The notes under the pieces: generated by a model
Databases searched by the model: none
The model's input: the letters and a program-made list of their open reading frames with translations, nothing else
Told to the model about the DNA's origin: nothing
Source of the DNA: a virus
Taxonomy: Duplodnaviria > Heunggongvirae > Uroviricota > Caudoviricetes
Length of the DNA stretch: 64,000 bases
Strand: one strand, 5' to 3'
Virus record (IMG/VR): IMGVR_UViG_2718218136_000001
Position numbers and translations under genes: made by a program
Part shown: one piece after another, positions 2,310 to 8,001 of the stretch
Position numbering within the stretch: the first letter of the stretch is position 1
Layout: each line of letters starts with the position of its first letter

Positions 2310-2555
2310 TTGGCAGAACGTGTTGATGATGCAGAGCTGAGCATGAATCAGTTAGAAGCTCTCAAAGACATGGCCATCGATAACATCAGAAAGCAGGCAC
2401 AGGTCGTGAGCCAGGTATTTACAGGGAAGTGTCGTTACTGCAATGAATCGATTGAATCAGGCATTTATTGTGACGCTGAATGTGCGCAATGGCACAGGGA
2501 AGAGCAGGCCGCAAAACAGCGTAAATATGGCATGCGACCGGCAGGATTTGACTGA
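2310..2555 (+). CDS. Small C4 zinc-finger protein (TraR/DksA-like)
   Basis: 81 aa; CRYC...CDAEC four-cysteine motif near the C-terminus; first gene of a plus-strand operon. Confidence 0.45.
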   Translation: MAERVDDAELSMNQLEALKDMAIDNIRKQAQVVSQVFTGKCRYCNESIESGIYCDAECAQWHREEQAAKQRKYGMRPAGFD

Positions 2556-2557
2556 TT

Positions 2558-3136
2558 ATGTTGCGCTTTACTGAGGAAGAGTTTCAGGCTTTTAGTGAGC
2601 GTCGAAATAAGGGGCGGTCCAGGCCAAAAACCAAAAAGGATCCATTCTTATCGCTTGCGCCGGTAAAAGAAGTTTCTCCACATGCGAAGGCACTTGCAGC
2701 ACTGGCAAAGAACCCAGACCTGCGCGACGGAAATTGCGAGCACTTCGAGCAGGTTTTCATTTTTGATTACTTCGAACGCAAGCACCCTGACATCTATGAG
2801 CTGTTGCATGCAACGCCTAACGGAGGGAAGCGTTCAAAAGCAACCGCCGGGAAAATGAAGGCTGAAGGGCAGAAAAAAGGTTATCCGGACATGAGTCTCG
2901 ATAAAGCATGCGGTATTTATCACGGCATGCGAATTGAGCTTAAAGAACCAAATGGTAAAGCCCCGACGAAAGAGCAGATCGCCTGGATGCGCAGGCTTAG
3001 AGAGGAAGGCTACTACGTTGTTCTTGCGTATGGTGCAGAACAAGCGATTACCGCCATCCTGGAATACATAAGTCTTAAAAAGGGTGAGGCTATTGAGCAT
3101 GTATTGAACGGCGATAAGTGGTTGCATGCTGCTTAA
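2558..3136 (+). CDS. VRR-NUC domain nuclease (PD-(D/E)xK family)
   Basis: 192 aa; ATPNGGKRSKATAGKMKAEGQKKGYPDMSL segment typical of VRR-NUC proteins; starts 3 nt after the preceding stop. Confidence 0.55.
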   Translation: MLRFTEEEFQAFSERRNKGRSRPKTKKDPFLSLAPVKEVSPHAKALAALAKNPDLRDGNCEHFEQVFIFDYFERKHPDIYELLHATPNGGKRSKATAGKMKAEGQKKGYPDMSLDKACGIYHGMRIELKEPNGKAPTKEQIAWMRRLREEGYYVVLAYGAEQAITAILEYISLKKGEAIEHVLNGDKWLHAA

Positions 3137-3142
3137 AATAAT

Positions 3143-3159
3143 AAATTAATTAGTGCATA
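3143..3159 (-). promoter_or_regulatory. Weak C1-operator-like site (aaattaattagtgcata)
   Basis: Partial match to the operator consensus in reverse orientation. Confidence 0.25.
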
Positions 3160-3160
3160 T

Positions 3161-5160: not shown

Positions 5161-6158
5161 AGATTGCTTTAGTTTTTCGCTCTGGTGGTGACTATAACGC
5201 TTCCGATGTGCAGTGGCTGGTTAATCAACTGCCAAAAGGCTATGAAATTATTTGCCTGACAGACCTGAAGCGTTTACATGTACCTGGCGTCAAAGTTGTC
5301 CCATTGATCAACCAGTGGCAAAAGTGCCGTGGCTGGTGGGCGAAAATCGAGTTGTTCCGACCGGATATAACCGATGATCTGTTCTATCTGGATTTGGACA
5401 CGGTTATTGCCGGTGATATACGCCCAATCCTAGAGCATCCACCAACCAGCTTCACCATGCTTAGGGATTTTTACCATCCACAATATCGTGGCAGCGGTGC
5501 CCTGTGGATACCAAATAGTGTTAAAGCGCATATCTGGAGTTCATTCTGGCAAGATCCGGAAGGTTGGATTTCTCGTTGTGTCACTACTGAGTGCTGGGGT
5601 GACCAGGGGTTCTTACGAAAGGTTATGGGCGATGATACACCAGCATTTCAGGATCTGTATCCAGGATGGTTTGTAAGTTACAAGGCCGATGTTGTGGAAC
5701 CTGGTTCAAAATATGCGAGCGCGCGTTACTCCAGGGGGAATGGGGCATTACCAAAAGACTGCCGAATAATCTTTTTCCACGGCAAACCGCGACCTCGCGA
5801 AGTGTCAGAGGATTGGCTTCCCCTTATCAGCTCATTTTTTGAGCGAGAATCAGAATATTATTGCTCTAATAATTCCGTATTTTTAAAACGTGATGTACAC
5901 TCATCACGTTTTTTATTAGAGCAATCTACAAGGTGCACTATGTGGCCATTCCGACGGAAATATCACTACTGGCTGATCGCCTTTGTTACGCCGACCGGCG
6001 GTATCAGGCATGTCATCACCAGGTATCGCAACAAGAGACTCACCTTAGCCAGAATTTTACAGGCTGCCATAGGTGAGGGACTGGATACAAATTGCGTAGT
6101 CCTTCCTCCTTCATACTTAGGAAAAATGACCGAAGCACAAGCTAATACGGAACTTTGA
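5157..6158 (+). CDS. Putative DXD-motif glycosyltransferase-like protein; C-terminal boundary uncertain
   Basis: 333-aa ORF; YLDLDTV motif and RIIFFHGKP near residue 210; an operator pair and hairpin (5860-5925) lie inside the 3' third, whose translation looks non-protein-like. Confidence 0.4.
5860..5876 (+). promoter_or_regulatory. C1-operator-like site (attgctctaataattcc)
   Basis: 15/17 match to consensus; paired with an inverted copy at 5909-5925. Confidence 0.5.
5885..5912. terminator. Perfect 11-bp stem-loop (aaaacgtgatg / catcacgtttt) followed by a T-run
   Basis: Read directly; lies between the two inverted operator-like sites. Confidence 0.4.
5909..5925 (-). promoter_or_regulatory. 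C1-operator-like site, reverse orientation (ttttttattagagcaat)
   Basis: Reverse complement matches ATTGCTCTAATAAAAAA. Confidence 0.5.
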
Positions 6159-6159
6159 A

Positions 6160-7422
6160 ATGAGCACTTCAGCACAAAACCAATCAATCGAAAATGTATG
6201 TATCCCTGATGTCCTGAATGCCGGTATCCCGGCCATTATCCAGAACATCCGGGCCGCGCAACGCCGCGTTAGTTGTGATGACCTCACAGCACGTTTTTTT
6301 GATAATGCGGTTCAGTCAGCGGAGATGCTTCACGCACAGCTTATTGATGTTTATAACGCAGAAGCTGATAGCCATAACTCCCTGGTAGATGCAGCTGAAA
6401 ATATGCAGTTGGATCTCGGTCTGAAGGGTAAAGAAATTGAAGAGCTTCAGCTGGAAATTGAACATTTGAAACGCCAGCAACAGGACGCGATCGACGATGC
6501 GACGCATGACGCCAACCAGCGTGCTGATAATGCCGAACGTATAAGCATTGAGCTGGAAACAAAACTCAATGAAATGACCGCGATGGTTGAACTGCGGAAC
6601 TCACAGATTTCAACGCTAAAATCTCAATATAAAGAGATCATGAAACTTGATCCTTTTAACCTTGAGAAACGCTATAACAAAGCTAAAAGCGAGCGACAGG
6701 AACTGCGTAAGCAGGTCGCCGACCTTAACCAACAGCTCAAAAAAACTATTAAAGATGCAAGCGAGGCGCGCGTGGCATTTGCTAATAAAAAAGCAGAGGT
6801 TACCGCGCTGGTTAATGAGAATGCCAAATTTGCGACGCTCAAGAAGGAAATGTATGGCATTACTGAGCGCCGTTTCCCTGCAAGCAAACTTCATCCGACG
6901 TTAGGGCAAATCTCCTTCTTCCCGCGCCTCCTGGCTTATGGGATCTCATCGCCTAAAGAGTTCAATAACGAGCGTCCTTATATCGTTTCTAAGCTGGACT
7001 TTGCTTATCAGTTCTGCTGCGACATGGGCTATGCCATTGATATCCGAATCAACGAATGGTTGATGCCAAACTTCCAGCCGTTGGCAATTTTCCGCGAGTT
7101 CCAGCCGGAAGGTTGGGTAGAGTTCTTCCATGAATTGATCTGTAAAGAGATGGAAAGCCGCCGCCCGGAATTGGTCCGTCGAGTTGAGTGGGCGCAAGAG
7201 GTTATGTTGGCAGATGCAGAGCTGCCGTTCGAACCGGAATTCATTGATGATCTGGCAACTAAAGGGTTGCATACCCTGTTTGATGTGGTTACCCGCCGTC
7301 ATGAGCAGTTGGTTGTCGAATTGGGTTTAGAGGAAACTGCGGCAAGAAGACTTCTCGATGTTTGCTATGCACGTAGCGATGCATGGGAAAAAGAGAACGG
7401 CGGCACTATTTACGTTCGCTGA
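6160..7422 (+). CDS. Hypothetical protein with long central coiled coil and unique C-terminal domain
   Basis: 420 aa; heptad-rich region about residues 60-230; starts 2 nt after the preceding stop. Confidence 0.5.
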   Translation: MSTSAQNQSIENVCIPDVLNAGIPAIIQNIRAAQRRVSCDDLTARFFDNAVQSAEMLHAQLIDVYNAEADSHNSLVDAAENMQLDLGLKGKEIEELQLEIEHLKRQQQDAIDDATHDANQRADNAERISIELETKLNEMTAMVELRNSQISTLKSQYKEIMKLDPFNLEKRYNKAKSERQELRKQVADLNQQLKKTIKDASEARVAFANKKAEVTALVNENAKFATLKKEMYGITERRFPASKLHPTLGQISFFPRLLAYGISSPKEFNNERPYIVSKLDFAYQFCCDMGYAIDIRINEWLMPNFQPLAIFREFQPEGWVEFFHELICKEMESRRPELVRRVEWAQEVMLADAELPFEPEFIDDLATKGLHTLFDVVTRRHEQLVVELGLEETAARRLLDVCYARSDAWEKENGGTIYVR

Positions 7423-7494
7423 TAGTTACAGTGTCACTTTTAATGCTGGTGGAGTGCTCCCACCAGCATTTTTTTCGTCCAATGAGGAGGGCAT

Positions 7495-8001
7495 TTGAGT
7501 ATTTTCAATAAACACGCACACCAGGAACGTCCGTACATCGTCATAGTAGATATTGATGGGACGATATCAGAGGCAACGGAAGACAGGCTGCATTTACTTC
7601 CACCACCTGGCAAAGGTGCATTAACAGAGCACTGGAACGAGTTTAACCTTGCCTGTGACACTGATGCTCCCATCACTCCAGTTATTGATATGGTGCGCCA
7701 GTTATTTAACGTTTACACGGTCTGGTTTGTAACCGGGCGCTGTGAGATCGCAAGGGATAAAACACGAGCCTGGCTGCGGAAGTACGTAACAAACGGTGCT
7801 GAGCCTTTGCTATCTATGCGTCCTGCCACCGATGACAGAAATGACGGCCCAGCAAAGATTGATCTCCTTAAGAAAATTGGTCTAAGTAAAATCGCGTTCG
7901 CACTGGAAGATAAGATTGAAGTGGCGCGTGTTTTCAGGAGTCACGGCGTACTTACGTTAATGGTCAGGGAGTATGAAAACGCACTTCTTCATCAACAATA
8001 A
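7495..8001 (+). CDS. HAD-superfamily phosphatase (DxDGT motif), polynucleotide-3'-phosphatase-like
   Basis: 168 aa; TTG start preceded by GGAGG RBS; IVDIDGTISEA motif I. Confidence 0.5.
   Translation: MSIFNKHAHQERPYIVIVDIDGTISEATEDRLHLLPPPGKGALTEHWNEFNLACDTDAPITPVIDMVRQLFNVYTVWFVTGRCEIARDKTRAWLRKYVTNGAEPLLSMRPATDDRNDGPAKIDLLKKIGLSKIAFALEDKIEVARVFRSHGVLTLMVREYENALLHQQ

Follow-up and report, generated by a model that had tools for sequence, protein, structure and literature searches.

The pmgL–pap block of a P1-type phage-plasmid: accessory genes, most of them dispensable, in a mosaic that probably includes a PmgO–PmgP–PmgQ glycosylation cassette

The stretch of DNA analysed here, referred to below as the window, comprises 64,000 nucleotides (nt) of the virus record IMGVR_UViG_2718218136_000001 (Caudoviricetes), and the genes in question lie on its plus strand between positions 2310 and 8001. 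This region is the already known pmgL–pap block of a P1-type phage-plasmid, whose genes have carried names since 2004, and instead of forming a single new system it is pieced together from accessory genes, most of which are dispensable. The block is probably a mosaic of units repressed by C1, one of which would contain a glycosylation cassette formed by the products of pmgO, pmgP, and pmgQ.

The identity of the region is clear. A base-by-base comparison of positions 2310–8001 with phage P1 (AF234172) gave 99.0% identity over the full 5,692 nt, with 57 substitutions and no insertions or deletions. P7 is 98.3% identical at the nucleotide level, P7, SJ46, RCS47, and other P1-type phage-plasmids fall at 98–99%, and the Escherichia coli plasmid NZ_CP016549.1 is 100% identical to the window over 7400–13000. 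The P1 record names the genes, in order, pmgL, pmgM, pmgN, pmgO, pmgP, ppp, pmgQ, pmgR, pmgS, and pap, and the names used in P7 are upf81.0, upf81.2, hdmA-D, ppp, shtA/B, and pap. Upstream of the block lie the divergent tail genes 26 and 25, the same as in P1, and nucleotide identity together with collinearity at the equivalent position makes the block part of the P1 backbone. The corresponding regions of P1 and P7 share with the window the gene order, the C1 operators (Op82, Op83, Op86a/b, and Op88), and the flanking gene 26. P1 differs in two respects: it keeps the pmgQ stop codon, which the window has lost through one of the 57 substitutions, and it diverges downstream of pap, from about position 8063, where P1 carries pmgT and the window a type I restriction-modification system. 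An earlier reading of this DNA, made from the letters alone (the sequence-only reading), had placed the region in a P1-like element and described it as uncharacterised unless all of its genes proved to be conserved, named P1 backbone genes of known function at the equivalent position. The placement was right and all the open reading frames (ORFs) that it listed are present, densely packed with gaps of 1–2 nt or overlaps of 4–103 nt; the genes are indeed conserved, named backbone genes at that position, but most of them are without a demonstrated function. No RNA family was found by an Rfam scan of window positions 1–14000.

The three genes of the cassette are as follows:
3300–3962, plus strand: pmgO, a DUF115/MptE-like transferase with the Maf/sialyltransferase fold.
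3860–4486, plus strand: pmgP, a distant paralogue of pmgO, WaaZ-like (from hhalign and natural fusions).
5157–5858, plus strand: pmgQ, a GT8-type retaining glycosyltransferase, with TAT in place of its stop codon here and read-through into pmgR.

PmgO and PmgP had been recognised earlier as two paralogs with a GSGPS motif, and both motifs are present. The two proteins match each other by BLASTP with an E value of 0.003, and their profile-profile comparison with hhalign, from whose alignment a natural O+P fusion protein was left out, gave a probability of 98.3% (E 2e-14, 159 columns). Folds were assigned from profiles and predicted structures, and searching the PDB with the single sequences of PmgO and PmgQ yielded no significant match. 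Both PmgO and PmgP have the three-dimensional fold of the DUF115/MptE-like superfamily (Maf, GT42, MptE, and WaaZ). The closest systems that can be named for them are the Maf flagellin glycosyltransferases, the GT42 sialyltransferases (CstI/CstII), and WaaZ, from which they differ in that a Maf chain has 632 residues, while PmgO and PmgP are single domains of about 200 amino acids (aa), and in that PmgO has an invariant HWHGxH cluster of its own. The PmgP family aligns with E. coli WaaZ over 143 columns (57.6% probability, E 1e-4), and the O+P fusion protein P0051 has a precomputed Pfam hit, ‘WaaZ_KDO_III’. With regard to the annotated PmgO of 220 aa, its homologues begin near residue 17–20 and the first 11 residues are modelled with low confidence; the true start may be an internal ATG at 3333, in which case the overlap with pmgN would be shorter.

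PmgQ has a GT-A fold with the DXD motif for metal and nucleotide-sugar binding, the DLDT of which is invariant. Its best GT8 sequence matches are Gat1, GlyE, and glycogenin, all of them protein-glycan enzymes. With respect to the GT8 enzymes (the Skp1 alpha-galactosyltransferase Gat1, GlyE, glycogenin, and LgtC) it is 13–17% identical and compact, with 233 aa. Against Pfam, PmgQ gave no hit at E <= 0.1 and so did not reach the Glyco_transf_8 gathering score.

Adjacency and fusions in other phages show that PmgO, PmgP, and PmgQ form a conserved, horizontally mobile cassette. Its diverse gene contexts were taken from contigs encoding cassette homologues. The three genes are contiguous in the Citrobacter phage phiNP, in the metagenomic contig L090, and in the P1 relative L095. 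In the E. coli phages EP_H11 and IME392 a GT-B-like gene stands between pmgP and pmgQ homologues, and in the metagenomic contig L093 this position is taken by a GT-A-like gene and a methyltransferase gene. In the Xanthomonas jumbo phage Xoo-sp13, PmgQ forms a fusion with an O-methyltransferase of the TylF type, and a tail host-specificity gene follows directly. Natural fusions comprise O+P (P0051), P+Q (P0147 and P0222), Q+P (P0237), and Q+P with a methyltransferase (P0189); the occurrence of fusions in both orders is strong evidence that the three proteins act together. The PmgP family alone amounts to 247 clusters at 50% identity among 1.84 billion representatives. The companions that recur, either fused or adjacent, are GT-B-like or GT-A-like genes and TylF-type or other S-adenosylmethionine-dependent methyltransferases. 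In L095 a true KdsB (the CMP-Kdo synthetase), matching solved KdsB structures with an E value of 1e-72, is encoded a few genes downstream of the cassette. There (L095:10846-12892), a 271-aa gene of no recognised family, kdsB, and a pap homologue follow each other, each overlapping the next by 4 bases. Of the roles suggested by the sequence-only reading, a protein or glycan modification pathway is thus supported for three of the ten genes, those of the cassette.

These companions also bear on what PmgO and PmgP transfer. Both proteins might be pyrophosphokinases resembling MptE and thiamine pyrophosphokinase, whose substrate would be a sugar or some small molecule; Ppp and Pap, the two phosphatases of the block, would then belong to the same phosphate-handling pathway. 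This is quite unlikely, since the conserved and fused partners are a GT8 glycosyltransferase, further proteins resembling glycosyltransferases, and methyltransferases that include one of the TylF type, and Ppp and Pap are absent from most cassettes beyond the close relatives of P1. The glycosyltransferase and methyltransferase companions, together with the KdsB of L095, favour sugar transfer over pyrophosphate transfer.

The two phosphatase genes of the block are the following:
4468–5160, plus strand: ppp, a lambda-type manganese-dependent Ser/Thr phosphatase (Metallophos match).
7495–8001, plus strand: pap, a stand-alone HAD phosphatase of the PNKP-phosphatase type (DIDGT motif and HAD_PNKP match).

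Both identifications agree with what had been read from the sequence. Ppp reaches 59.3 bits against Metallophos (cut-off, 21.5), and Pap has DIDGT at residue 19 and reaches 45.3 bits against HAD_PNKP (cut-off, 27.6). The only NCBIfam matches in the block are PphA-like matches for Ppp, below the cut-off. The Metallophos match of Ppp extends over its full length, and the P1 record gives 64% identity with the lambda Ser/Thr phosphatase (NinI/orf221); the lambda gene lies in the nin region, whereas ppp stands inside a glycosyltransferase cassette, where it separates pmgP from pmgQ and has overlapping start and stop codons. Pap shares the HAD_PNKP match and the DxDGT nucleophile motif with the 3′-phosphatase domain of T4 Pnkp. 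Two identities proposed for Pap were rejected: it is not a PNKP, because its 168 aa form a phosphatase domain only and the kinase domain is lacking, and its resemblance to E. coli KdsC (BLASTP E 0.02) is confined to the DxDG motif.

The genes of the block are gained and lost separately among P1 relatives. Loci for the synteny counts were found by a PmgQ alignment search and are almost all close P1 relatives; all ten genes occur in 60 of 80 P1-like viral contigs, and the five most divergent of these contigs (44–67% identity) have pmgM, pmgO, pmgP, pmgQ, and usually pmgS, with no Ppp or Pap within the fetched flanks. In D6, a distant relative of P1, homologues of pmgM, orf11, pmgR, and pmgS are contiguous, ppp is located elsewhere, among small genes of lambdoid type, and the homology searches with PmgO and PmgQ gave no D6 homologue. 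The gene ppp is absent between the pmgP and pmgQ homologues of L095, L099, phiNP, and L090, these homologues being adjacent in the relatives L095 and L099, while the relative L098 has ppp. The presence of pap is also variable, and the gene just upstream of it is pmgS in P1 and in a third relative, kdsB in L095, and a 101-aa ORF in L098. Thus, ppp and pap are gained and lost independently. The ppp gene is a mobile phosphatase gene of the lambda type that forms a variable insertion within the cassette, and pmgL–pmgM and pmgR–pmgS look like older backbone. In L098 (L098:8135-9489) a gene for an Rv2179c-like exonuclease and then the 101-aa ORF stand between pmgS and pap, and because of these extra genes the pmgS–pap junction looks like an insertion hot spot.

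Since its components vary independently from one relative to another, the block does not behave as one system, contrary to the view of nine genes acting together. This bears directly on the idea that the whole block is a single co-regulated system for nucleic-acid hypermodification or repair, or for defence or anti-defence. The PmgM protein is nuclease-like, Pap exceeds the Pfam cut-off for the PNKP phosphatase domain, enzymes of the Ppp type are related to the phosphoesterase domain of bacterial Pnkp (a weak NCBIfam hit), and the Rv2179c-like exonuclease gene of L098 lies two genes upstream of pap. However, apart from the independent variation, no kinase or ligase partner is present, the conserved partners of the transferases are glycan enzymes, and the PADLOC-DB models gave, for the ten proteins, only weak coiled-coil matches of PmgS to LmuB, with an E value of about 5e-4. 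P1 DNA is not known to be hypermodified. Neither the nuclease nor either phosphatase shows a consistent link to the transferases, so that DNA or RNA hypermodification or repair, as had been suggested, finds little support, and such a single system is very improbable. Published deletions, moreover, leave anti-restriction activity unchanged (PMC9024508).

The region is not only named but has also been genetically surveyed, and no function has been assigned in it save for pmgR. Gonzales et al. (2022) made 29 single-gene knockouts, including in-frame deletions of pmgL, pmgM, pmgN, pmgO, pmgP, pmgQ, pmgS, ppp, and pap, and 24 of these were free of any defect in plaquing or anti-restriction; the five genes found to be essential were pmgA, pmgB, pmgC, and pmgG as well as pmgR (PMC9024508). 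Deletion of pmgR, which could be complemented, left heads and tails unjoined (PMC9024508). By genome-wide CRISPR interference (CRISPRi), the block genes are non-essential except for pmgN, and pmgR was missed by the screen (PMC10695390). The gene pmgN, essential by CRISPRi (PMC10695390) and non-essential by deletion (PMC9024508), is the only gene of the block in conflict. The supplement of the knockout study contains no glycosyltransferase, sialyltransferase, nuclease, or phosphatase terms (PMC9024508). These results weigh on the original annotation, according to which the genes have morphogenetic products that form, or help to assemble, the head, sheath, or baseplate of P1. That annotation is reflected in the older names (pmg in P1, hdm/sht in P7), a PmgS homologue in D6 is annotated as a scaffolding protein, and the PmgO homologue of PAJU2 is annotated ‘structural protein’. 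Nonetheless, the deletions of pmgL, pmgM, pmgN, pmgO, pmgP, pmgQ, pmgS, ppp, and pap all plaque normally, which rules out essential structural roles for these nine genes, CRISPRi agrees with the exception of pmgN, and the folds or motifs of PmgO, PmgP, PmgQ, Ppp, and Pap are those of enzymes. A morphogenetic role is accordingly hardly credible as an explanation of the block.

The control elements of the block can be listed as follows:
2203–2221, plus strand: late promoter LPpmgL, predicted, overlapping the divergent LP26 (position transferred from the P1 annotation).
2236–2252, minus strand: C1 operator O26 (former Op82), with two mismatches to the C1 consensus, at the position annotated in P1.
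3143–3159, minus strand: C1 operator Oppp (former Op83), annotated in both P1 and P7, with a sequence that departs from the consensus.
5860–5925: inverted pair of C1 operators, OpmgRa (5860–5876, plus strand) and OpmgRb (5909–5925, minus strand), supported by consensus match and P1 annotation.
7442–7470, plus strand: terminator-like hairpin of 11 pairs, six of them G-C, followed by TTTTT, between pmgS and pap.
8001–8017, plus strand: C1 operator OpmgT (former Op88), with one mismatch to the consensus, annotated in P1.

A scan of the window with the C1 consensus gave 16 matches, compared with 0.36 expected by chance. Four of them (at 2236, 5860, 5909, and 8001), together with the diverged site at 3143–3159, bracket and punctuate the block, and these five sites coincide with the P1 operators O26, OpmgRa, OpmgRb, OpmgT, and Oppp. 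The sequence-only reading had noticed such sites and had deduced repression by C1 in the prophage state, correctly in both respects. The window is base-for-base the same as P1 over 2200–2312. The sequence of Oppp is TATGCACTAATTAATTT in the window and CATGCACTAATTAATTT in P1, and a cluster of nine substitutions lies just past this operator, at 3159–3182. The OpmgRa and OpmgRb sites (the Op86 pair) flank an AT-rich hairpin at 5887–5908 with a T-run and overlap the predicted promoter PpmgR. The hairpin at 7442–7470 is kept in P1 except for one loop base. In P1, predicted promoters with operators are annotated before pmgL, pmgN, and pmgR. Instead of the one operon that had been described, the block would therefore consist of several C1-controlled units, given the internal promoters and operators of the P1 annotation before pmgN and pmgR and the terminator-like hairpins, among them the one at 7442–7470. 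Since the block genes of P1 are C1-repressed, they would be expressed in lytic growth.

The count of nine genes has a different origin. P1 has ten genes here, and the lower number is due to a private stop-codon change. The 333-aa ORF at 5157–6158 is made up of pmgQ, a 27-codon linker, and pmgR, which are joined in frame because the pmgQ stop TAA is TAT at 5856–5858; the own start of pmgR is retained at 5940. The ‘DXD-motif protein’ of the sequence-only reading consequently holds good as regards the invariant DLDT of PmgQ and fails as regards the single 333-aa gene, which is pmgQ fused to pmgR. The TAT stop-loss variant was found in one of 334 P1-like plasmids (NZ_CP016549.1), and among the 52 viral contigs in which the anchor was located the pmgQ stop is TAA in 51, TTA in one, and TAT in none. 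The fusion reads through the operator and hairpin region, and if transcripts end at the hairpin past pmgQ, the TAT allele would yield non-stop mRNAs.

The remaining genes of the block are these:
2310–2555, plus strand: pmgL, an 81-aa four-cysteine zinc-finger protein, DksA/TraR-like by PHROG (from its cysteines and PHROG 54).
2558–3136, plus strand: pmgM, a VRR-NUC or PD-(D/E)xK nuclease-like protein (from its motif and PHROG 5702).
3203–3358, plus strand: pmgN, a small ORF with the start used in P1; P7 annotates a GTG start at 3161.
5940–6158, plus strand: pmgR (P1 annotation).
6160–7422, plus strand: pmgS, a 420-aa protein with a coiled-coil region, non-essential.

The zinc finger and the nuclease motif, both of which had been read from the sequence, are confirmed. 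In PmgL the four cysteines are C41, C44, C54, and C58, and the protein matches PHROG 54, ‘DksA-like zinc-finger’, with an E value of 1.6e-12. PmgM has the motif GYPD(108)...ELK(127); the protein scores 21.3 bits against Pfam VRR_NUC (PF08774), slightly under the cut-off of 23.8, and matches PHROG 5702, ‘Holliday junction resolvase’, with an E value of 4.8e-27. The pmgM homologue of D6 is 57% identical and stands directly upstream of the homologues of pmgR and pmgS, the latter being 21% identical and annotated ‘putative prohead scaffolding protein’. Of all the genes in the block, pmgN is the least conserved, with 85–88% identity in many contigs that are otherwise 98–100% identical.

Downstream of pap, at about 8063–12741, the type I restriction-modification system comprises hsdR (8268–11384), hsdS, and then hsdM. 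Its junction with pap is found in 243 plasmids with at least 80% of the query covered. The target-recognition halves of hsdS (11506–12741, minus strand), at 12247–12726 and 11638–12117, are 100% identical over 480 nt and are separated by three TAEL repeats; HsdS may thus recognise a symmetric sequence, and its gene may have undergone a recent duplication or gene conversion.

Taken together, the block would be organised in four C1-repressed units that are switched on in lytic growth. The first, pmgL–pmgM, would provide a small zinc-finger protein and a nuclease of the VRR-NUC type; the second would extend from pmgN through pmgO, pmgP, and ppp to pmgQ; the third, pmgR–pmgS, would serve head completion; and the fourth would be pap, a lone HAD phosphatase. 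Within the second unit, the P1 cassette would have been split by the insertion of ppp. Its enzymes would jointly build a short glycan late in infection, PmgO and PmgP being diverged DUF115 enzymes (of the Maf/GT42/WaaZ type) that would take an ulosonic acid, for example Kdo, from a CMP-activated donor and transfer it, and PmgQ a GT8-type retaining hexosyltransferase that would use a UDP-sugar and a metal ion at its DXD motif. A CMP-activated ulosonic acid such as CMP-Kdo would be the most plausible donor for PmgO and PmgP, because of the KdsB of one contig and a moderate WaaZ alignment.

Several observations weigh against this scheme. PmgO and PmgP score 23.4 and 20.9 bits against the Pfam family MptE-like (PF01973), under its cut-off of 34.6, which some family members pass, among them P0160 at 44.1 bits. 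The link between PmgP and WaaZ reaches just 57.6% probability. KdsB is otherwise rare in phages and its association with the cassette comes from one metagenomic contig; the kdsB arrangement of L095 was not found in PLSDB, and none of six KdsB-encoding phage records is among the PmgO and PmgQ carriers listed. The transcription units are defined by predicted promoters and consensus scans. Single deletions of pmgO, pmgP, and pmgQ plaque normally, without a biochemical or genetic phenotype. As to the target, genomic sites beside structural genes are also classic for unrelated ‘moron’ genes, and no P1 virion glycan is reported in the literature searched.

The genomic placement of the cassette offers some guidance on that target. 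In unrelated phages it usually stands among head-tail genes or between lysis and terminase genes. The cassette or parts of it are found among head-tail genes in D3, PAJU2, contigs L091 and L094, and the contigs encoding P0080 and P0042, the homologue following soon after the capsid gene in D3 and L091. In phiNP, where it precedes terS, and in L093 it lies between lysis and terminase genes, and in L090 after the lysis genes. Mycobacteriophage glycosyltransferase genes, reportedly credited with virion glycosylation, have a similar genomic placement, and because of this resemblance virion proteins are ranked first as the target and host lipopolysaccharide (LPS) second. The former can be proposed tentatively, at less than even confidence, and the latter is doubtful. 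A literature search on the pmg genes, on DUF115 with phage, and on virion glycosylation brought up no study of the function of PmgO, PmgP, or PmgQ. The glycosylation of mycobacteriophage capsids and tail tubes and that of chlorovirus PBCV-1 (A64R) involve other enzyme families, and no DUF115 pair is known from either; the cassette phages differ further in having Gram-negative hosts.

The case for LPS deserves to be stated in full. The LPS core is where P1 adsorbs, and overexpression of WaaZ leads to a truncated outer core. By adding extra Kdo to the inner core (PmgO and PmgP) and changing the core (PmgQ), the cassette might truncate or mask the outer-core glucose receptor, so that progeny would be spared loss on debris and on infected cells. 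The alignment of PmgP with E. coli WaaZ and the ‘WaaZ_KDO_III’ hit of P0051 speak for this, as do the presence in L095 of KdsB, an enzyme of LPS precursors, and the link of PmgQ to LgtC. On the other hand, genes that are C1-repressed and active in the lytic phase would have little time to replace the LPS of the surface; the cassette is carried by phages of Pseudomonas, Caulobacter, and Xanthomonas, whose receptors are expected to differ; several lineages have it embedded among head-tail genes; and the best GT8 matches are the protein-glycan enzymes named above. LPS modification is for these reasons unlikely.

A possible reading, to be held with caution, is that of a widely mobile and so far undescribed cassette by which virion proteins receive a short glycan, perhaps one with Kdo in it and in some cases methylated. 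If true, phages of Gram-negative bacteria would thereby have their first virion-glycosylation system, unnoticed in the classic transducing phage P1, and the dispensability of the genes in the laboratory would be explained. What is useful is the division of the block into independent modules, one of which is a coherent, probable glycosylation cassette common to lambdoid, HK97-like, P1-like, and jumbo phages of Proteobacteria. P1 is an easy genetic system for which deletion mutants already exist. If the particles of Gram-negative phages are glycosylated, this would bear on the immune recognition of therapeutic phages and on the interactions of phages with host surfaces.

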